Shown: in pieces, positions 16,069-46,328 of the stretch | How the letters are laid out: each line of letters begins with the position of its first letter | How positions within the stretch are numbered: the stretch's first letter is position 1 | Source: a virus | Virus record (IMG/VR): IMGVR_UViG_3300050501_000377 | DNA: 64,000 nt | Reading direction: 5' to 3' (one strand) | Position numbers and translations under genes: made by a program | The notes under the pieces: generated by a model | Database searches by the model: none | Told to the model about the DNA's origin: nothing | Seen by the model: the letters and a program-made list of their open reading frames with translations, nothing else

Positions 16069-16106
16069 GGAACCAAAGCATATGCTTCGACGTCTAATGC
16101 ATATGC
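16069..16106 (+). promoter_or_regulatory. AGCATATGCTTC motif plus TAATGC -10-like element (promoter/operator candidate)
   Basis: ggaaccaaAGCATATGCTTCgacgtcTAATGCatatgc has the same AGCATATGCTTC-N6-TAATG spacing as the site at 46305-46328. It lies 30-70 nt upstream of the 16138 ATG. Confidence 0.45.
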
Positions 16107-16803: not shown

Positions 16804-17081
16804 GCGCCACCGTACTGACCTTCAGCGCGCTGCTCAAGGGCGAGCGCTTCCGCGTCGTCGCCGCTGGCGGCGCGCCGGCTGGGCCGGTCTTCACCAAGGT
16901 GGCGAAGAACACCTGCCGCGACGTCGAGGGGCAGTGGCTGACCATCTCGCCGCACGTCCCGGTCGAACCAGTGGAGATCTGCGGCGACACCTTGCAGCTG
17001 GAGAGCGGCGGGAACGTGATGTGCCGCGAGGAGCACGGCCACAGCGGCGCGCATCGGGACGGCCGGCGGATGTGGAACTAG
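16800..17081 (+). CDS. hypothetical protein, 93 aa
   Basis: The GTG start overlaps the upstream stop (GTGA). Confidence 0.45.
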   Translation: MSATVLTFSALLKGERFRVVAAGGAPAGPVFTKVAKNTCRDVEGQWLTISPHVPVEPVEICGDTLQLESGGNVMCREEHGHSGAHRDGRRMWN

Positions 17082-17130
17082 CATATGCTTCGCGGCCGGC
17101 AGCTGCTGAGGGAGCGGCTGCCGGCAGCTG
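17074..17130 (+). promoter_or_regulatory. AGCATATGCTTC motif followed by two GCCGGCAGCTG repeats
   Basis: ggaactAGCATATGCTTCg (17074-17092) overlaps the stop codon of the upstream gene. ggccggcagctgc and gctgccggcagctg follow (17094-17130). Confidence 0.45.
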
Positions 17131-29815: not shown

Positions 29816-30038
29816 GGCGCGCGGTCGCGTGCAGCGCCTCTACCCCGAGCGCGGCTTCGGCTTCATCCGCTGCACCGAGGGCGTGGGGGAAGTCGGCAAG
29901 GACTACTTCTTTCACATGAGTGGTCTCGACGACCGGCGGATCGAGGAGCTGGAGGAAGGCGCGATGGTGGTGTTCGAGCCGCGCGTGGTCGCCAAGGGGC
30001 TGCGAGCGGAACACATTCGGAGTGAGAGCGGGTTGTGA
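29775..30038 (+). CDS. cold-shock domain protein (CspA family)
   Basis: ERGFGFIRC...KDYFFHMSGL match the RNP1/RNP2-type motifs of cold-shock proteins. Start uncertain: ATG 29775 overlaps the GT gene by 41 nt, and TTG 29808 or GTG 29829 are alternatives. Confidence 0.7.
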   Translation: MTSSETSSRSELPEARGRVQRLYPERGFGFIRCTEGVGEVGKDYFFHMSGLDDRRIEELEEGAMVVFEPRVVAKGLRAEHIRSESGL

Positions 30039-32542
30039 TGGCGGTCACCCGACAAGTGACGCCGCCCGACCCGGATCTCGCCTTTGCGGCGCCGGTCGCA
30101 CCCGTGGTGCAGCCCCGGCGACGGGCGCCGATCGAACGGGCGCCGATCGAGATGGAGCCGGCGCCCGCCCCGGTCGTGACGCCAGCAGCGCGCGTCGAGG
30201 CACCGTCAATCCTGCCGGACCTCGGCCCACCCCGCGCGGCTGATGGGACGCTGTGGGCAGCGCCGGCTCCAACCTTCACCTATCTGGCGGGGCCGGCGGG
30301 GAGCGGCAAGACCTTCGCGACCCGGGAGTGGGCGGAGAAGGAGCCGGGGCTGGTGCTGTGCGCGACGACCGGGATTGCGGCGATCAATCTCGGCGGCGAA
30401 ACGATCAACAGCGTGCTCGGCTACTTCGACACCGCCAGCCTGCAGGAGGCCTACATCACCGGCTTCCTCACCGCCAAGCTCGGGAAACTGTGGAAGTCGG
30501 GCGTGCGCCGGCTGGTGCTGGATGAAGTGAGCATGTTGGCGGGCGACCAGCTCACCTTCCTGGTGCGGGCGATCGACGAAGTGAACGGGCGCGGGTATGT
30601 CCTCGGCAAGAGCACGCCGGACGACGACGACCCGCCGCAGATGGGGCTGACGCTGGTGGGCGACTTCGCGCAGCTGAGTCCGGTGAAGGCGAGCTATGCG
30701 TTCGAGTCGCCCGAGTGGGAGCGCTTCGCGCCGAACGTCATCACCCTGGACCGCATCTACCGCCAGGACGACCAGGACTTCATCGCCGTGCTGCGGGCGG
30801 CGCGCCATGGCCGCGGGCGGGTGGTGGCGGAGTACTTCGCCAGCCGGAACGCCATCAACCACGAGACCGACGATCACTACGACGGCCCGACCATCGTCGC
30901 GAAGAACGAGTCGGTCGACCGCTTCAACTACCTGCGGATGTCACAGCTGCAGGGCAAAGAGCTGAAGTTCACCAGTCACCGCTGGGGGAAGCTCAGAAGC
31001 GAGTGGGGCCAGCTGGAGAAGCCGGAGGCGCAGTGGGGCATCCCGAAGGTGCTGCCGCTGAAGATCGGCGCGCTGGTGATGATCCTCGCCAACCGCCGGA
31101 CCGAGCTGCTGCCGCGGCGGCTGCTGTATGTCAACGGCGACCTCGGGACGATCGTCGACGCCACCGAGGCGACCTGCTGGGTCGAGCTGCAGCGCACCGG
31201 CGAGGTGGTGGAAGTCGAGCCGGTCACCCGGGATGTGAAGGTGCCGTGTGACTCGGCGCGGAGGAAAGAGCTGCGCGAGAAAGGGCCGGAGGGCGCGACA
31301 CGGATCGACGGCAAGTGGGAAGTGGTCGGGAGCATTACCTACCTGCCGCTCAGAGTTGCATATGCATCGACGGTGCATAAGTGCGTCGCGCCGGACACGC
31401 GCGTGTTAGTCGCCGGCCGCGGCGCTGTGCGCGTGTGTGATCTACGCGTCGGCGAGTGGATCGATACGGGCGGCGGCCTCGCACGCCTCAAGGCGGTGGC
31501 GCAGACCGAGTGTCGTCTGCATCGACTGACCACCGCGCGCGGCTACACACTGCTCTGCTCGCCCGACCATCGGTGGAAGACGCCGCATGGCTTCCGCCAG
31601 ACGTGCAAGCTCGTCCCCGATCACCCGATCTGCCTAACGACAACCGCGACGATCACCGGCACACAGGAGATCGACAGCGACCTCGCGTGGTGGATCGGTG
31701 CCTCGCTCGGCAACGCCGCCTGGGCTGACCAGCGCGAAGGCCAGATCCACTTCACCAGCGAGGTCGCGCACCTGCGCGAGCGCTGGATGGCGATCGCGCA
31801 GCGACTCGGTGGGCGGCCGAACACACGCCGCGACGAGCGCGGCTGTCATCTCACCAGCCTGCCACTGCGGCTCCGGCTCGCAGCGTGGGGCTGCGACTAC
31901 GTCACCGCGGTGGACAAGCGCGTCCCTGAGGCGATTTGGACGTCGGGGCCGTCGGCTTGGGCGGCGTGCCTACAGGGCCTGTTCGACACCGATGGCTCGA
32001 TGATCGATCGCCGGCTGGTCTACGCGACGCGGTCGGAAGGACTCGCCTGCGACGTGCAGCAGCTGTTGTTGTATCTCGGCATCGCCAGCACGCGCGGCAC
32101 CTACGCGGGACCGACGGGGCCGTACCAGCACGTCTGGATCAATGCGGAGCAACGCGACCGCTACGAAGCGCTGGTCGGCTTCTCCCACCCCGAGAAACAG
32201 CGCGCACTAGGCGAGTGGCATCCGAACCGCGTGATCAAGCACTTCGACGGGACGGACACTGTCAAGACGATCGAGTGCCTGAAGGTGATCGTGCCGATGT
32301 TCGACATCGAGCTGGAAACGATCCACGAGCTAGGCTTCGGGCCGTTCGTCGGCAGCAACTCGCAGGGACTGAGTCTCGATCGGGTCCAGGTCAACATCCG
32401 CGACCCGTTCTTCAAGTCGCCAGGGATGCTCTATGTCGCGTTGAGCCGAGCGAGAAGTGCCGCCGGGTTGCGATTGGTCGGCAGCCCGCAGGCGCTGGTG
32501 GAGCGGTGCGTGACGGACCCGCGGCTGCGGGCGTGGTTGTGA
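30038..32542 (+). CDS. SF1B DNA helicase (Pif1/RecD/Dda-like) interrupted by an intein
   Basis: Walker A GPAGSGKTF, Walker B LVLDEVSML, GDFAQLSPV. The motif STVHK|SQGLS is split by a 326-aa insertion, and LYVALSRAR follows. ATG 30038 overlaps the upstream TGA; GTG 30035 is an alternative. Confidence 0.85.
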   Translation: MAVTRQVTPPDPDLAFAAPVAPVVQPRRRAPIERAPIEMEPAPAPVVTPAARVEAPSILPDLGPPRAADGTLWAAPAPTFTYLAGPAGSGKTFATREWAEKEPGLVLCATTGIAAINLGGETINSVLGYFDTASLQEAYITGFLTAKLGKLWKSGVRRLVLDEVSMLAGDQLTFLVRAIDEVNGRGYVLGKSTPDDDDPPQMGLTLVGDFAQLSPVKASYAFESPEWERFAPNVITLDRIYRQDDQDFIAVLRAARHGRGRVVAEYFASRNAINHETDDHYDGPTIVAKNESVDRFNYLRMSQLQGKELKFTSHRWGKLRSEWGQLEKPEAQWGIPKVLPLKIGALVMILANRRTELLPRRLLYVNGDLGTIVDATEATCWVELQRTGEVVEVEPVTRDVKVPCDSARRKELREKGPEGATRIDGKWEVVGSITYLPLRVAYASTVHKCVAPDTRVLVAGRGAVRVCDLRVGEWIDTGGGLARLKAVAQTECRLHRLTTARGYTLLCSPDHRWKTPHGFRQTCKLVPDHPICLTTTATITGTQEIDSDLAWWIGASLGNAAWADQREGQIHFTSEVAHLRERWMAIAQRLGGRPNTRRDERGCHLTSLPLRLRLAAWGCDYVTAVDKRVPEAIWTSGPSAWAACLQGLFDTDGSMIDRRLVYATRSEGLACDVQQLLLYLGIASTRGTYAGPTGPYQHVWINAEQRDRYEALVGFSHPEKQRALGEWHPNRVIKHFDGTDTVKTIECLKVIVPMFDIELETIHELGFGPFVGSNSQGLSLDRVQVNIRDPFFKSPGMLYVALSRARSAAGLRLVGSPQALVERCVTDPRLRAWL
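31382..32359 (+). mobile_element. intein (326 aa) with LAGLIDADG homing-endonuclease domain
   Basis: Begins CVAPDTRVLV right after helicase TVHK, has block B-like LLCSPDHRW, and ends FVGSN followed by +1 Ser. LAGLIDADG-type motifs are LAWWIGASLGN (degenerate) and LQGLFDTDGS. In frame with both exteins. Confidence 0.8.
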
Positions 32543-40084: not shown

Positions 40085-40175
40085 GATCGGGGGGAATTTG
40101 CTGGCGGCGCTGGTGGTCGGGGTGCTGGCGGTGCTGGTGATTCAGTGGTGGCGGTTTCGTAGCGGGAGGCGGTAG
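40068..40175 (+). CDS. small hydrophobic peptide, 35 aa
   Basis: MQLTLEIGGNLLAALVVGVLAVLVIQWWRFRSGRR with AGGAGC 8 nt upstream. It overlaps the C-MT gene end by 17 nt. Confidence 0.35.
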   Translation: MQLTLEIGGNLLAALVVGVLAVLVIQWWRFRSGRR

Positions 40176-40393
40176 TGAGAAGCAGTGATATGATGCATAT
40201 GCTACCTGCTGCGGCTGACCCGACTAAGATGCTCACGCTCGAACAGGTTGCCGAGCAGCTGCAGATCGAGCCGCGTGCGGTACGCAAGCTGTGCGCCCGC
40301 GGTGATCTGGAGTACGTGAAGATTGGGCCGAAGACGCTGCGCTTCAAACCCGAGTGGATCGACGCACTCATCAAACGAAAGCAGGGACGGTAG
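40175..40393 (+). CDS. xis: excisionase / MerR-type HTH DNA-binding protein
   Basis: LTLEQVAEQLQIEPRAVRKLCARGDLEYVKIGPKTLRFKPEWIDALI is the excisionase-family HTH-plus-wing pattern. It lies immediately upstream of the integrase. GTG start after GGGAGG; internal Met starts are possible. Confidence 0.65.
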   Translation: MRSSDMMHMLPAAADPTKMLTLEQVAEQLQIEPRAVRKLCARGDLEYVKIGPKTLRFKPEWIDALIKRKQGR

Positions 40394-41599
40394 ATGGCGA
40401 AGTGGAAGGATGGCGTCGCGATGCGGGGCAAGACCTGGTGGATCCGCGCACAGCACGAGGGCGATCGAACCTCAGGTTTCGGCTCGGTGAAGAAGTTCGC
40501 GTTCCTGCTCGAACCGCACCAGCCGATCCCGACGACGAAGACCGATACGATGATGCTGAAGCGCCGCGTCGAGGACTGGTTGGTACGGGGGAAGCCGATG
40601 CCGACACCGAAGGTAGAAGCGCCAGCGCCGGTCGTCGAGCTGCACGGCTACGACTTGATCAACCGCTGGATCGCGACCAAGACGCGCAAGCAATCAGCAG
40701 CCGACTTGTCAAAGGAGCGCGCCGCGCAGCAGGCGTTCGGCGCGCTGCCGTTGTCGAAGTGGGAGAACGCCGAGACCTTCCGCGACTACGTCACGCGGAT
40801 GACCGACGCCGGCTTCCAGATCGCCACGCCGAACCGCGTCCTCGCCGCCGTCGTCCGTCCGGCGCTGCTGTGGGGGTTGAACCAGCGTCCCGCTCTCGTC
40901 ACCTTCAATCCGTTCGGTCGCTACCAGTTCAAGATCGACATCAAGGCCGAGAACAGACGCACCGAGCGCTGCGACCCGAACAGCGAGGCGTGGCTGTTGG
41001 AGATGTGCTACGGGCCGCTCGCCACCGCGAAGCACCGGAAGGCAGGGCCGGCGCTCGCCGACTACATCATCCTTGGGATCGACTTCGGGGCGCGGGCGGG
41101 CGAGCTACTCAACCTGAAGAACCAGGACGTCGACTGGCACGCCTGCACCGTCACCCTCCGACGCACCAAGCGCGGCGAGTTCCGCGTGGTGCCGTTCAAT
41201 CCAGTCGGGCGCGTGGCGGAGATCCTCAAACGCCGCCGGTTCGCTGGCGCTGCGGCCTACGTGGTCACGCTGCGGAAGGTCTTCAAGCTCTGGGTCCAGG
41301 CGGTCTGCCTCGTCCACGGTATCCCGTGCGAGTACCTCGGGCGCGGCAAGTACTTCACCGCGGAGACTCGCGAGGCGTACAAGGCCGCGAACCTGCGCCC
41401 GCACGACTTCCGGCACGAGGCGGCGACGTGGTGGGGACTGTGCGGCGTGTCGGACGCGACCGCGAAGTTCCTGCAGGGGCACACCTCGCAGGCCGATACG
41501 CACGGGCGCTACAAGCACGAGGAGCTGCGGCTGGCGACGCAGGAGCTGCGGGAGAAGGTCTGGTCGCGTGAGAACGAGCGGGCGCAGAAGACGGCGTGA
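40394..41599 (+). CDS. int: tyrosine integrase
   Basis: The C-terminal catalytic region has HDFRHEAATWW (HxxR) and GHTSQADTHGRYKH (catalytic Tyr). 401 aa, adjacent to a tRNA. Confidence 0.85.
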   Translation: MAKWKDGVAMRGKTWWIRAQHEGDRTSGFGSVKKFAFLLEPHQPIPTTKTDTMMLKRRVEDWLVRGKPMPTPKVEAPAPVVELHGYDLINRWIATKTRKQSAADLSKERAAQQAFGALPLSKWENAETFRDYVTRMTDAGFQIATPNRVLAAVVRPALLWGLNQRPALVTFNPFGRYQFKIDIKAENRRTERCDPNSEAWLLEMCYGPLATAKHRKAGPALADYIILGIDFGARAGELLNLKNQDVDWHACTVTLRRTKRGEFRVVPFNPVGRVAEILKRRRFAGAAAYVVTLRKVFKLWVQAVCLVHGIPCEYLGRGKYFTAETREAYKAANLRPHDFRHEAATWWGLCGVSDATAKFLQGHTSQADTHGRYKHEELRLATQELREKVWSRENERAQKTA

Positions 41600-43030: not shown

Positions 43031-43214
43031 TGCCGCGGGCAAGCTGGCGCGCATGACCTGCGGCGTGTGCCAAGGCACGACGTGGCGCCGCCACGGCGCG
43101 CTCTACGACACGATCGCTCGCGTCGTCACCGAGTTTGCCGAGTGCCAGGGCTGCGGGGCGAGCTACCTGTACCAGCGCAAGCCGACCAAGGAGGAAGCGC
43201 GTGGCGCAGCTTAG
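43005..43214 (+). CDS. small zinc-finger protein, 69 aa
   Basis: CGVCQGTTW...CQGCG; GGGGAGGCGG upstream. Confidence 0.45.
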   Translation: MKGTGDACDAAGKLARMTCGVCQGTTWRRHGALYDTIARVVTEFAECQGCGASYLYQRKPTKEEARGAA

Positions 43215-46209
43215 TCATCCGCCTGGGTGTCGCGGCTGCGTGCTCGACGAGCGCGGCGAAGGCTTCGCGCCCGCGGATGGTCCGCCCGAGAGCTGGCTGC
43301 TGCTGGTCGGCGAGTCGCTCGGCAAGGTCGAGGCGCTCACCGGCCGGCCGTTCATGGGCGACGCGGGCGGGATGCTGACGCGGCTGCTGAATCTGCTCGG
43401 CTGGAGACGCGACGCGATCCGCATCCACAACACGATCAGCTGCCACCCGCCTAACGACTGGTTCGACGAACGCGCGCCCTGGTACTACTCGGCGATGGGG
43501 CACTGCCCGTACCTGAAAGACACGCTCGATGAAGGCCACCAGGTCGTGGTGCCGATGGGGATGGCGGCGCTCAGGCGGGTGCTGCACCTCGAACACAAGA
43601 AGAAGGTGCGCGTCCAGGACTTCCACGGCAGCGTCGTGCGCGACCCGACCGATCGCTTCTGGGTGGTGCCGACCTTCCACCCGAGCTACCTGCAGCGCGG
43701 CGCGACGAATCTGATCGGCACGGTGCTGTGGGACCTGCAGCGGGCCGAGCAGGCGAGAGACCACGGGCGGCCGACGGACGACTACTCGCTGGTCGTCGAC
43801 CCGCCGGTCGAGTGGTTCCGCGCCTGGGTCGATCAGGTGATCGCTGCGAGATGTCAGGACCCGGGCGCCTACCCGATCTCCAGTGACGTCGAGACACCGG
43901 ACAAGGCCGGCGGCCAGGACGAGGGCGAGATCGGCGCCGACGACGTCAGCTTCCAGCTGCTGCGGCACAACGTGAGTTGTCACCCCGATGAGGGCGTGAC
44001 GGTGCCGCACGCCGGCCCGTATCTCGATGAGCTGAAGAGACTGTACGCGTCGCCCGGGCAGATCTGGATGTGGAACCGCGAGTACGACTTCGTGCGGCAG
44101 GTGCGCGCCGAGCTAATGAGAGAGATCGACTCGACGCGGGTGGTGGATTTGATGTGGCTGTGGCACTTCCTGCAGAGCGACCTGCCGCGAGGGTTAGGGT
44201 TCGTCGCGCCGTTCTACAGCGGGTATGGTCCCTGGAAGCACCTCGCCGCGGAAGAGCCAGCCAAATACGGGGCGATCGACGGACTGCAGACGCACCGGGT
44301 CGGGTTCGGGATCCTGACCGACCTGCAGCAGCAGGGGATGTATCAGGTGGCGATGCGGCATACGCACCGGCTGCTGACCGAGGTCCTGCGGCCGGCGCAG
44401 CTGGTGGGCGTCAAGGTCGACCGGGCGGGACTGCTGGTGTTCAAGCAGGAGCTGGTCGACAAGGCGCGCGAGAAGCTGGAGACGCTCCAGGGATGCGTTC
44501 CCGAGGCGCTCGCCCCCCTGACCCCCAAGGAGGGGCTACGCCGCCCGCCAGCGGCCGATCTCCTGCATGTGAAGGCGAGTGCCTTCACCCGGAAAGGGAC
44601 GCTCAGAAAGGGCAAGCCGTCGAGTGAGATCAAACAGGAGCTGTATGCCAAAGCCAGGATTGTCGAGAAGCTCGTCCTCCGGGAGATCCTCGTCTGCCGC
44701 AGTTGTGGCGGTCGTGAAGTGGCTCGACGACATCGCTGCCTCGCTCCAGCAGACGCGGCTGGAGGTGGAGGCGTTGATCTTGTCGTTGCGACTGTCAGCC
44801 GCTGGTTCTGGCAGGAACCCTTCAACCCCGACAGCGTCCCCCAGGTCCTCGCCTACATCAAGCACCGCAAGCACCACCCCGGCCGAGCGAAAAAGAGCCA
44901 GAGCGAAGAAAGCACCAACCGCGAAACCCTAGAGCGGCTGGCGCGCACGACCCGGGATCCGTTCTACAGCGCGCTGCTCGATTACCGCGCGATCGGCAAG
45001 GTCAAAGGGACCTATGTCGAGGGGACGGAGAGAAGACTGGACGCGGAGGATCGGCTGCACCCGACGCCGACCTTCAAGCCGTCAACCATGCGGCTGAGTT
45101 ATACGAACCCGAACATCACCAATGTGGTCGCCGACAAGGACAGCCAGCGCAACCTCGCCGCCGGGTTCAGGAAATGCATCGTCGCTGAGGCTGGCTGCCG
45201 GCTGCTCGAAGTCGACTTCGCCGCGATTGAGGCAGTCGAGACGGGCTGGTGTGCGCGTGATGCGGAGTACTACCGCCTCGCCAAGCTCGGTGTCCACGCC
45301 GCCCTGGTGACGCATGTCCTCGGGCAGCCCTACGACCCGAGCCAGAGTGACGTGGCGCTCGCCACGCTGTTCAAGCGGGTGAAGCACGACCACCACGAGA
45401 TCTACGAGCCGGCGAAGCGCTACATCCACGGGCGCAGCTACGGCCTGACGGTACCGGGGATGACGCTGCAGTTCCCGCACCTGTTTCCGACCCATGCGGT
45501 GGGCGAGAAGTATGCGCGCATCTTCGAGCGGATGGCTCCCGGCGTCGCGGACTGGCAGCGGCAGACGCAGCTGCGCGCCAGCCGGCAGCATTATCTCGGT
45601 GGCGCTGGCGACCATCCCTTCGCCTATAAGCACTGGTTCTGGTCCGTCTACAGCTACAAGCGTCTGACCCAGACGCAGTACTACCGCCTGGTCGCGAAGT
45701 ACGAGCGCCAGGGGCAGCCGCCGCCGTGCGTCGAGATCAACGGGCAGCATTTCAAAGTCAGTCTAGGCGAAGACGGCAAGCGCGTCCTGGCCTTCTACCC
45801 GCAAAGCATTGCAACCGGCGTGCTCAAGGAGGCGATGATCCGGTTGCTGGCGGAGCCGGAGAGTCCGAGCTACATCGGCGATGCGTATTACGGGAAGACG
45901 CCGCTGCGCGCCCCGATTCACGACTCGCTGCTGCTGGAGATCCCGGATCGGCAGTGGGACCGGGTGTTCGAGACGGTCTGTATGGAGATGCAACGGCCGG
46001 TGATTGAACAGCCGCTGCCCGAGACCTGGTACCGGGAGGCGGGCGACTGCGTCGCGATCGGCGTGGCGGCGAAGGCGGGGCAGAACTGGGCGGAGATGGA
46101 AGAGGTCGCGGTGCCGGGGTACAGCAGCGACTGGCACGCCGAGCCGATCGCGGAGCCGATCGAGACCGAGGACGAGGACGACTGGGCCGACCTCGGGCGC
46201 GCCGTGTGA
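43201..46209 (+). CDS. family A DNA polymerase with 3'-5' exonuclease and an N-terminal uracil-DNA-glycosylase-like (family 4 type) domain
   Basis: UDG-like LLLVGESLGKVEALTGRPFMGDAGGML and TFHPSYLQRG. Exo motif ISSDVETPD. Pol motifs LLEVDFAAIEAV (A), KRYIHGRSYGL (B) and PIHDSLLLEI (C). GTG 43201 is preceded by AAGGAGGA. Confidence 0.9.
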   Translation: MAQLSHPPGCRGCVLDERGEGFAPADGPPESWLLLVGESLGKVEALTGRPFMGDAGGMLTRLLNLLGWRRDAIRIHNTISCHPPNDWFDERAPWYYSAMGHCPYLKDTLDEGHQVVVPMGMAALRRVLHLEHKKKVRVQDFHGSVVRDPTDRFWVVPTFHPSYLQRGATNLIGTVLWDLQRAEQARDHGRPTDDYSLVVDPPVEWFRAWVDQVIAARCQDPGAYPISSDVETPDKAGGQDEGEIGADDVSFQLLRHNVSCHPDEGVTVPHAGPYLDELKRLYASPGQIWMWNREYDFVRQVRAELMREIDSTRVVDLMWLWHFLQSDLPRGLGFVAPFYSGYGPWKHLAAEEPAKYGAIDGLQTHRVGFGILTDLQQQGMYQVAMRHTHRLLTEVLRPAQLVGVKVDRAGLLVFKQELVDKAREKLETLQGCVPEALAPLTPKEGLRRPPAADLLHVKASAFTRKGTLRKGKPSSEIKQELYAKARIVEKLVLREILVCRSCGGREVARRHRCLAPADAAGGGGVDLVVATVSRWFWQEPFNPDSVPQVLAYIKHRKHHPGRAKKSQSEESTNRETLERLARTTRDPFYSALLDYRAIGKVKGTYVEGTERRLDAEDRLHPTPTFKPSTMRLSYTNPNITNVVADKDSQRNLAAGFRKCIVAEAGCRLLEVDFAAIEAVETGWCARDAEYYRLAKLGVHAALVTHVLGQPYDPSQSDVALATLFKRVKHDHHEIYEPAKRYIHGRSYGLTVPGMTLQFPHLFPTHAVGEKYARIFERMAPGVADWQRQTQLRASRQHYLGGAGDHPFAYKHWFWSVYSYKRLTQTQYYRLVAKYERQGQPPPCVEINGQHFKVSLGEDGKRVLAFYPQSIATGVLKEAMIRLLAEPESPSYIGDAYYGKTPLRAPIHDSLLLEIPDRQWDRVFETVCMEMQRPVIEQPLPETWYREAGDCVAIGVAAKAGQNWAEMEEVAVPGYSSDWHAEPIAEPIETEDEDDWADLGRAV

Positions 46210-46273: not shown

Positions 46274-46328
46274 AACTCGAGTTTGCTCGAGCGCAAACTT
46301 GACAAGCATATGCTTCATCGAGTAATGT
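46274..46328 (+). promoter_or_regulatory. promoter with operator-like palindromes
   Basis: TTGACA (46299-46304), 18-nt spacer containing AGCATATGCT, then TAATGT (46323-46328). Upstream overlapping palindromes are AAACTCGAGTTT (46274-46285) and GTTTGC-N6-GCAAAC. Confidence 0.5.

Follow-up and report, generated by a model that had tools for sequence, protein, structure and literature searches.

A probable class 1 LAGLIDADG intein with penultimate serine and an asparagine in its first endonuclease motif, inserted in motif V of a Dda/PIF1-like phage helicase

Inteins at active-site motifs of ATPases and helicases, loss of the penultimate histidine in phage inteins, and loss of the endonuclease in the course of the homing cycle are already established. 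A helicase intein of a Certrevirus phage was reported in 2020 by Buttimer et al. (PMC7344957), splicing not being tested in that work, and its insertion site is thus already known, though hardly characterized. Here, we analyze a 64,000-nucleotide stretch of DNA from the IMG/VR virus record IMGVR_UViG_3300050501_000377 (referred to as the window), which belongs to an uncultured phage with a contig of 71.7 kb and ~67% GC. It harbors a gene for a Dda/PIF1-like helicase of superfamily 1B (SF1B) that is interrupted in frame by 326 codons. Conserved residues, from which the mechanism is also deduced, indicate that this insert is very probably a LAGLIDADG class 1 intein residing in helicase motif V.

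The Pectobacterium phages phiTE (phiTE_030) and vB_PatM_CB7 (CB7_80), genus Certrevirus, resemble the window in combining a Dda/PIF1-like SF1B helicase with a LAGLIDADG endonuclease, and the insertion point is identical. The phiTE junction reads …GYAITGHK/CVSKNS…GLIVHN/CQGLTLDK (slashes mark the boundaries between extein and intein). Identity amounts to ~25% over the matched part. The intein of phiTE and CB7 ends in His-Asn (HN), is followed by Cys at position +1, and has an intact GDG in its first LAGLIDADG motif, whereas the window intein ends in Ser-Asn (SN), is followed by Ser+1, and carries Asn111 in that motif. The hosts differ as well, a 142-kb myovirus of 50% GC in one case and a phage of ~70 kb and 67% GC in the other. 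An architecture like that of the window, i.e. a HINT domain split by a two-motif LAGLIDADG endonuclease, is found in the structurally solved inteins TliVMA/PhoVMA (7qsu, 7qss, 7qst), PI-PfuI (1dq3), PI-SceI (1vde, 1lws), and PI-PkoII (2cw7). These were matched with Foldseek values of 1e-13 to 1e-21, template modeling (TM) scores up to 0.72, and profile values of 1e-9 to 1e-14, at a sequence identity of 12-18%. They reside in V-ATPase, ribonucleotide reductase, or DNA polymerase and comprise ~360-540 aa, whereas the window intein resides in a helicase, is smaller (326 aa), and differs from them in the penultimate Ser and the Asn in motif 1.

Two further systems bear on these two deviating residues. 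Class 1 inteins without penultimate His have been described in mycobacteriophages (Kelley et al. 2016, PMC5050341). Like the window intein, they occupy active-site motifs of phage proteins of DNA metabolism. They have Gly, Lys, or Ser at the penultimate position; splicing was demonstrated for one example with Gly, which splices completely, and the block F His can substitute for the missing residue. The host genes are different (terminase, recombination directionality factor, primase, SNF2-like helicase, and others), as are the intein lineages. In single-chain I-CreI D20N and I-MsoI D22N (Li et al. 2009, PMC2655683), one of two catalytic Asp residues is replaced by Asn as in the window. Those enzymes are engineered and outside any intein, whereas the window enzyme is natural and intein-borne.

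A search of 5.8 billion proteins yielded 431 homologues, most of them with a length of ~500 aa and several bearing the Joint Genome Institute name "ATP-dependent DNA helicase PIF1." Thirteen of the best 120 homologues were 770-1054 aa long and contained LAGLIDADG_3. Alignment A1 comprised 13 long (intein-bearing) and six short (intein-less) homologues. In all 13 long forms the extra segment lies at the same peptide bond, TVHK/C…N/SQG, with N/CQG in one of them, and the short forms run through the site as …AYASTVHKSQGLSLD…. This alignment shows Walker A (GxGKT), the DE motif, and TVHK to be invariant or almost so. In the raw sequence of the window, the insert opens with TGC (Cys) at 31382, has AAC (Asn) as its last codon with the final base at 32359, and is followed by TCG (Ser+1, 32360-32362), such that motif V is split as TVHK/C…SN/SQG. 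Excision of the insert in silico restored STVHKSQGLSLD, exactly the uninterrupted reading of the six intein-less homologues. The comparison with intein-less alleles that had been proposed as a check on an earlier, sequence-based reading of this locus (the original prediction) thus agreed with it, and every string on which that reading relied (the 326-aa in-frame insert, CVAPDTRVLV, LLCSPDHRW, FVGSN before S, LAWWIGASLGN, and LQGLFDTDGS) was recovered from the raw sequence.

The interrupted protein shows the hallmarks of an SF1B helicase, namely Walker A GxGKT, a DE motif, motif V TVHKSQG upon fusion, and motif VI YVALSRAR. Pfam detected AAA_30 (3.7e-14) and PIF1 (1.8e-7) in the N-terminal part of the precursor and Viral_helicase1 at its C-terminal end, and the host protein matched PHROG 325, "Dda-like helicase," at 7e-55. 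The choice of start codon is uncertain, GTG 30035 competing with ATG 30038, which public gene calls prefer and which lies one codon later (834 aa, P0001; P and L numbers denote proteins and contigs in our collection). The identical protein P0001 occurred on five contigs, and the three shown stem from three samples; it is therefore not an assembly artefact. The positions of all features are collected in Table 1.

Table 1. Positions of the helicase-intein gene, its splicing and endonuclease motifs, and associated DNA elements (numbering of the window; A1, 13 long and six short helicase homologues; A2, 18 family inteins)
Feature	Position	Strand	Remarks
Precursor gene, Dda/PIF1-like SF1B helicase plus intein	30035-32542	+	835 aa
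N-extein	30035-31381	+	449 aa; ends in first half of motif V (…AYASTVHK); alignment A1
Rare-codon, low-GC3 flank	31352-31381	+	AGA GTT GCA TAT GCA TCG ACG GTG CAT AAG; just 5' of insertion point
10-bp palindrome TGCATATGCA in flank	31357-31366		Positions -25 to -16; flank string GCATATGCATCGACG
Putative intein, class 1, with nested double-motif LAGLIDADG endonuclease	31382-32359	+	326 aa / 978 nt
Cys1 (block A), predicted nucleophile of splicing step 1	31382-31384	+	Invariant, 18/18 (A2), and in all family members parsed
Block B S60-P-D-H63 (TxxH of the family)	31559-31570	+	His63 invariant; Ser or Thr at position 60 in most members
LAGLIDADG motif 1, LAWWIGASLGNA	31682-31717	+	Catalytic position Asn111 (AAC, 31712-31714)
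Block D Lys179 (K-R-V-P), endonuclease active-site periphery	31916-31918	+	Invariant in A2; aligns with KRIP of PI-PkoII
LAGLIDADG motif 2, LQGLFDTDGS	31970-31999	+	Intact; catalytic Asp204 (GAT, 31991-31993)
Block F, PMFDIELETIHELGF, with Asp308 and His315	32294-32338	+	Asp308 and Glu310 invariant; His315 at least 90% (A2)
Block G GPFVGSN	32339-32359	+	Penultimate Ser325, terminal Asn326; Asn326 invariant
C-extein	32360-32542	+	60 aa and stop; starts SQGLSLD (second half of motif V), followed by motif VI YVALSRAR
Reconstructed fused junction (empty site)			…GTGCATAAG/TCGCAGGGA…; also …GCATATGCATCGACGGTGCATAAG/TCGCAGGGACTGAGTCTC…
Copies of 8-bp palindrome GCATATGC	16078-16085, 16099-16106, 17081-17088, 31358-31365, 40195-40202, 46306-46313

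As evident from Table 1, the blocks of a class 1 intein are in place. Block F of the window reads FD308IELETIH315. Asn326 is followed by Ser at +1, as class 1 block G demands, and the usual penultimate His is absent, Ser325 standing in its position. The family profile matched endonuclease-bearing inteins in the PDB (PI-PkoII, 8.5e-14; PI-PfuI, 1.3e-13; VMA inteins, ~1e-12; PI-SceI, 1e-9), mini-inteins (gp41-1, 1.6e-12, over the N-terminal splicing part; RecA, 7e-7; also DnaB inteins), and the free-standing endonuclease I-DmoI. The AlphaFold2 model of the intein had a predicted local distance difference test score (pLDDT) of 94 and a predicted TM score (pTM) of 0.93. Its best Foldseek match in the PDB was the TliVMA intein (7qsu, 9.4e-22, TM 0.72), followed by the endonuclease-bearing inteins PI-PfuI, PI-SceI, and PI-PkoII and then by I-DmoI and gp41-1. 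The original prediction of a LAGLIDADG intein splitting a helicase motif was thus borne out by the junction, the conserved blocks, and the profile and fold matches. A class 3 intein (WCT type) was considered and rejected, given that Cys1 is present, position 4 of block F is Asp308, block G reads VGSN, and the WCT triplet is missing. A domain other than an intein was likewise rejected on the residue evidence.

Two points weigh against the assignment as a splicing intein. The curated HINT models of Pfam and NCBIfam responded weakly and below their cut-offs (Vint, 0.004; intein_Nterm, 0.03), so that the HINT assignment draws on the family profile together with the predicted fold and the conserved blocks. 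Moreover, every step of the proposed mechanism rests on homology. Loss of the penultimate His would also fit a dead intein or a non-splicing domain, with the helicase existing only as an 835-aa protein or as a pseudogene. We consider this extremely unlikely, since the insert splits a conserved motif V, the remaining splicing residues are all invariant, the exteins are strongly conserved with the frame intact over >40 clusters, and inteins without penultimate His do splice (PMC5050341). As all residues for class 1 splicing are present and conserved in relatives, splicing competence of the window intein is a reasonable inference.

The penultimate Ser that had been singled out as non-canonical is indeed present (Ser325), and it recurs in about 12 clusters of the family. 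SN endings were found in the window, P0002-P0005, P0061, P0122, P0132, P0139, P0144, P0145, and P0147, and all others end in HN. The window, P0002-P0005, P0061, and P0122 form a subfamily in which the inteins are 48-63% identical to that of the window, HN inteins reaching ~40%; P0132, P0139, P0144, P0145, and P0147 are more distant SN members. Host exteins within the subfamily are just 43-68% identical to that of the window. Ser has thus persisted despite long divergence and transfer, an argument for its compatibility with function. The window also possesses the block F His that can compensate, His315. Penultimate Ser is therefore a recurrent, conserved trait of a subfamily and an already documented variant of phage inteins (PMC5050341).

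Based on the conserved residues, we propose the following course of events. Translation of the gene would yield the 835-aa precursor, in which a HINT domain would fold from about intein residues 1-95 and 281-326. Cys1 would perform an N-to-S acyl shift aided by His63 of block B, and the resulting thioester would be attacked by Ser+1. Cyclization of Asn326 would then free the intein. With Ser325 in place of a penultimate His, Asp308 and His315 of block F probably assist in this step. An O-to-N shift would finally generate a 509-aa helicase with intact motif V, and the freed 326-aa protein would be a monomeric two-motif LAGLIDADG enzyme. Ancestors of this endonuclease may have homed into empty helicase alleles during co-infection. 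The present copy with its D111N exchange most likely still binds DNA without introducing a double-strand break and would either nick one strand or be catalytically dead. Its persistence would be due mainly to vertical inheritance because only precise deletion leaves a working helicase.

The distribution of the intein family was examined with the intein alone as the query. A word-indexed protein search returned a single match; the family became apparent when HMMER was run exhaustively, which gave 25 cluster representatives at E<1e-30. Nearly all parsed members share the junction HK/C…N/[S/C/T]QG, which occurs in ~30 clusters (50% identity) beyond the 13 sequences of A1. The same junction was seen in the IMG/VR contigs L242 and L243 and in the phiTE helicase. 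Altogether, >40 sequence clusters carry an intein at exactly this site. The +1 residue is Ser in most and varies between Ser, Cys, and Thr across P0038, P0128, P0130, P0134, P0138, P0139, P0144, P0147, L242, L243, and phiTE (L090). Intein-less alleles, of which 51 were parsed from IMG/VR loci, also vary in the residue before QG (S, C, T, M, A, or N), so several residues appear to be tolerated at this point of the extein motif V.

Horizontal spread of the family is indicated by discordant identities of inteins and exteins. Of 300 pairs, 44 showed greater similarity between the inteins than between the exteins, among them P0006/P0113 (73% versus 48%), P0020/P0125 (61% versus 43%), and the window/P0004 (63% versus 54%). 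The window extein shares no more than 68% identity with that of any intein-bearing allele, as opposed to 76-81% with the intein-less alleles. This pattern is as expected of homing into an otherwise intein-free helicase lineage. GC content at third codon positions (GC3) is 0.85 in the intein and 0.91 in the core of the N-extein, and this closeness to the value of the host gene suggests that acquisition was not very recent. The helicase region of these phages seems to gather selfish elements, a free-standing HNH_3 endonuclease gene (L084:4087-4566) being located ~0.5 kb downstream of another intein-bearing helicase allele (P0003).

The endonuclease part shows the double-motif LAGLIDADG fold of the PI-SceI/PI-PfuI type, a pseudo-dimeric alpha-beta-beta-alpha-beta-beta-alpha arrangement with two LAGLIDADG helices. 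Pfam LAGLIDADG_3 was detected at 7e-13 and, on precursor residues 643-715, at 8e-12, and Foldseek aligned I-DmoI with a target TM of ~0.7, the LAGLIDADG helices occupying residues 99-111 and 190-204 of the AlphaFold2 model. An acidic residue at the end of the motif is present in motif 2 (Asp204), in agreement with the original prediction of an intact second motif. Motif 1 ends in Asn111 instead. Gly106 and Gly110 of motif 1 and G199, L200, F201, D202, and G205 of motif 2 are invariant in A2. The family pattern of motif 1 is WWxGxx[V/L/I]GDG, with G-D in 16 of the 18 aligned inteins. G-N is confined to the window and P0006 in this alignment and was seen outside it in P0113 and P0121. In the window, motif 1 reads GASLGNA, and the exchange of Asp111 for Asn corresponds to one transition (GAC to AAC). 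The neighboring Gly112 is replaced by Ala, as it is in P0002 and P0004, both of which retain the Asp. That motif 1 had lost both acidic residues, as originally proposed, holds against the textbook consensus; within the family, position 6 is never acidic (Val, Leu, or Ile), and only the Asp at position 8 is ancestral. Motif 2 is degenerate in several relatives, i.e. P0006 (DCTG), P0137 (DTNG), P0138 (DTAG), and P0148 (DTGG). In P0006, both catalytic motifs are lost (GNG and DCTG), and this copy is fully inactivated. Together, the D-to-N exchanges and the motif 2 losses among relatives point to recurrent endonuclease loss in the family, as expected from the homing cycle.

The term "nickase-type or decaying" that had been applied to the enzyme was only partly appropriate. 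Motif 1 carries Asn in place of its catalytic Asp, but no other part of the intein is as well conserved as the endonuclease domain, whose identities to the closest relatives are 0.52-0.69 versus 0.41-0.57 for the N-terminal HINT part. Lys179, Arg163, and motif 2 are all intact. The domain as a whole thus does not appear to be decaying, and the term fits at most a single catalytic residue. LAGLIDADG enzymes cleave one strand per domain; one catalytic residue comes from each motif, and a central metal ion is common to both sites (PMC3017599). When one half-site was mutated in single-chain I-CreI (D20N) or I-MsoI (D22N), double-strand cleavage became undetectable, and the I-MsoI variant still nicked (PMC2655683). 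By analogy, we predict that the copy in the window does not cut both strands and at most nicks, being either a nickase or a dead enzyme.

A natural nickase with Asp204 as the sole catalytic acid would cut one strand of intein-less alleles, and homing would then proceed by nick-induced recombination or after conversion of the nick to a break in phage replication. Such an enzyme is in keeping with D111N in an otherwise well-conserved domain with the residues listed above, with the retained nicking of I-MsoI D22N (PMC2655683), and with the recurrence of the exchange in a second sub-lineage (P0006, P0113, and P0121), in which motif 2 is intact in two of the three members. Engineered LAGLIDADG enzymes produce nicks that are recombinogenic, and phages possess natural homing enzymes of the HNH type that nick (PMC3017599). 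Nevertheless, we regard a nickase as unlikely. Because the central metal ion is shared, loss of one acid often kills both sites; no activity was reported for single-chain I-CreI D20N (PMC2655683), and P0006 with both motifs lost fits simple decay in that sub-lineage.

A deviation in the opposite direction, an enzyme that is still fully active because Asn111 or a neighbor supports double-strand cleavage and that keeps the intein mobile at present, appears very doubtful. The strong conservation of the domain and the clear horizontal spread of the family would be in line with it, but the catalytic Asp is kept in 16/18 aligned relatives, and D-to-N at this place is the exchange by which I-CreI and I-MsoI are standardly inactivated (PMC2655683). 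Two considerations nonetheless count against our prediction of lost double-strand cleavage. Activity might be retained if Asn still coordinated metal to a degree or if another residue compensated, and high conservation of the endonuclease domain is compatible with recent inactivation as well as with continued function.

The sequence just upstream of the insertion point deviates from the rest of the gene in codon usage. The stretch AGA GTT GCA TAT GCA … CAT (31352-31378) is the most extreme cluster of A- or T-ending codons in the gene (six of nine codons), the gene set having a GC3 of 0.89 and using AGA, GTT, and GCA at frequencies of 2.6, 0.8, and 6.3%, respectively. Originally, a 15-mer from this flank was stated to consist of rare A/T-ending codons; this is true for GCA, TAT, and GCA (three of five), whereas TCG and ACG, both G-ending, are common codons. 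A second copy with 14 of 15 matching positions does exist in the window, at 16078-16092 instead of 16079-16093. A match of this quality is not remarkable, as 8.7% of the 15-mers in the GC-rich window have a partner with one mismatch at most. A family-wide excess of A/T-ending codons at the site was rejected as well: it ranked 1/360 (z ~3.2), even after an amino-acid-identity control, and fell to rank 44 (z 1.3) without the eight sequences of the palindrome clade.

The flank had further been suspected of being a co-conversion tract. It would then be such a tract or a homing footprint left by a donor of lower GC, the intein having been lost later from those intein-less alleles that share it. The GC3 dip is indeed limited to ~30 codons centered on the insertion point (0.60-0.68 over codons 431-460, compared with ~0.9), GC3 in the N-terminal part of the intein (0.81) is below that of the N-extein, and many lower-GC SF1B helicases encode AYASTVHK by the same nucleotide string. 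However, flank and dip are shared with six intein-less alleles; over the same codons, GC3 is 0.84-0.86 in other intein-less and 0.82-0.89 in other intein-bearing alleles. At the identical -24 position, GCATATGC is present in the intein-less L003 (42/45 bases), L004, L006-8, L009, L015, and L021. The flank is absent from all seven other intein-bearing alleles compared by DNA, which have GCG TAC GCG AGC ACC or similar and match 27-34 of 45 upstream bases, and from the intein-bearing L242 and L243. The synonymous identity of the flank to relatives did not significantly exceed the gene average (best L003, 12/14 codons; window rank 0.11), and a metagenome scan for the palindrome and HK string followed by an intein gave 71 loci of 26-69% GC, all of them intein-less SF1B helicases. 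Precise loss of the intein with preservation of the flanks would be an extra assumption. Hence, co-conversion is quite unlikely. Judged by the alleles compared, the flank is a trait of the helicase lineage that lies next to the intein and is not demonstrably part of it. The present data suggest that it follows the helicase tree rather than the intein tree. Its origin could lie in a functional palindrome, in an old patch converted from a helicase of lower GC, or in drift.

The 8-bp palindrome GCATATGC is overrepresented in the window with six copies versus 0.45 expected, a number reached in none of 100 shuffles. Of the five copies beyond the helicase gene, four fall into gaps between open reading frames (ORFs) according to our own estimate of high-GC3 ORFs, and the copy at 40195 is found where the called HTH_17 gene starts. 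A spacing of 21 nt separates the copies at 16078 and 16099, and a degenerate GTATATGT lies 21 nt downstream of the copy at 46306. Three copies are directly followed by TTC (GCATATGCTTCG or GCATATGCTTCA) and, by eye, have GGAAC or TTGAC on their upstream side at a distance of 2-4 nt. Intein-less relatives with GCATATGC in the helicase gene have further copies ~2-2.5 kb from it (L003:3161 and 5690; L004:4261 and 6314; L009:2174, 4393, and 6635), often as GCATATGCTAC like the window copy at 40195. The motif thus looks clade-specific and not peculiar to this genome. A promoter was tried as an explanation and rejected, since a consensus scan of three regions (16078/16099/17081, 31358, and 46306) revealed no sigma-70-like site. 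The sites may represent candidate operators or elements of a non-sigma-70 promoter.

With its excess of copies, its intergenic positions, the 21-nt spacings, and the same synonymous positions kept in six intein-less relatives, the palindrome TGCATATGCA could be a functional DNA element of the phage clade, e.g. a protein-binding site, located by chance 24 nt from the intein site. This is possible, although on the unlikely side in our view: the copies scanned lack a sigma-70 consensus, the relatives are not independent samples, and in many helicases AYA is encoded as GCA-TAT-GC through codon usage alone. A scenario in which a one-sided endonuclease, nicking by its motif 2 site, mobilizes the intein between co-infecting phages with the palindrome in the helicase coding sequence serving as a functional DNA element or as part of an extended recognition region is rather improbable. 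If true, it would be a natural counterpart to the engineered nickases derived from I-AniI, I-SceI, and I-MsoI.

The class 1 intein proposed here leaves current understanding unchanged. Its annotation should read helicase plus intein, as public gene calls give only PIF1, AAA_30, and LAGLIDADG domains. Motif V (TVHK/SQG) of Dda/PIF1-like phage helicases is a recurrent intein site in environmental phages (>40 clusters) and in cultured Certrevirus phages. The family offers natural variation in the intein end (HN or SN), in the +1 residue (Ser, Cys, or Thr), and in the endonuclease, which is intact, half-inactivated, or fully inactivated.

Megablast with the gene as the query found no match among 50,697 phage records, so the phage has no close cultured relative among them. 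The intein profile retrieved at best ~31% identical sequences of other intein families from 185,579 representative prokaryotic genomes, giving no clue to a prophage or host. Relatives in IMG/VR are ~70 kb in size. About 8 kb downstream of the helicase gene lie an HTH_17 (excisionase-like) gene and, next after it, a Phage_integrase (tyrosine integrase) gene (window 40175-41599; also L080:20138-21562), and the phage is probably temperate. A 1024-aa protein encoded at 43135-46209 (+) combines an N-terminal domain of the uracil-DNA-glycosylase superfamily (4e-17) with a family A DNA polymerase (3e-23). A gene for a cold-shock-domain protein is situated just upstream of the helicase gene, and glycosyl- and methyltransferases and an SLT-domain protein are also encoded. 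The first ~75 residues of the helicase (window 30035-30270) are rich in Pro and Ala, weakly conserved, and of different length among homologues, with a GC3 of 0.70-0.87. The intein-bearing homologue P0006 (L087:1501-4665) has a low-complexity N-terminal extension of ~250 aa.

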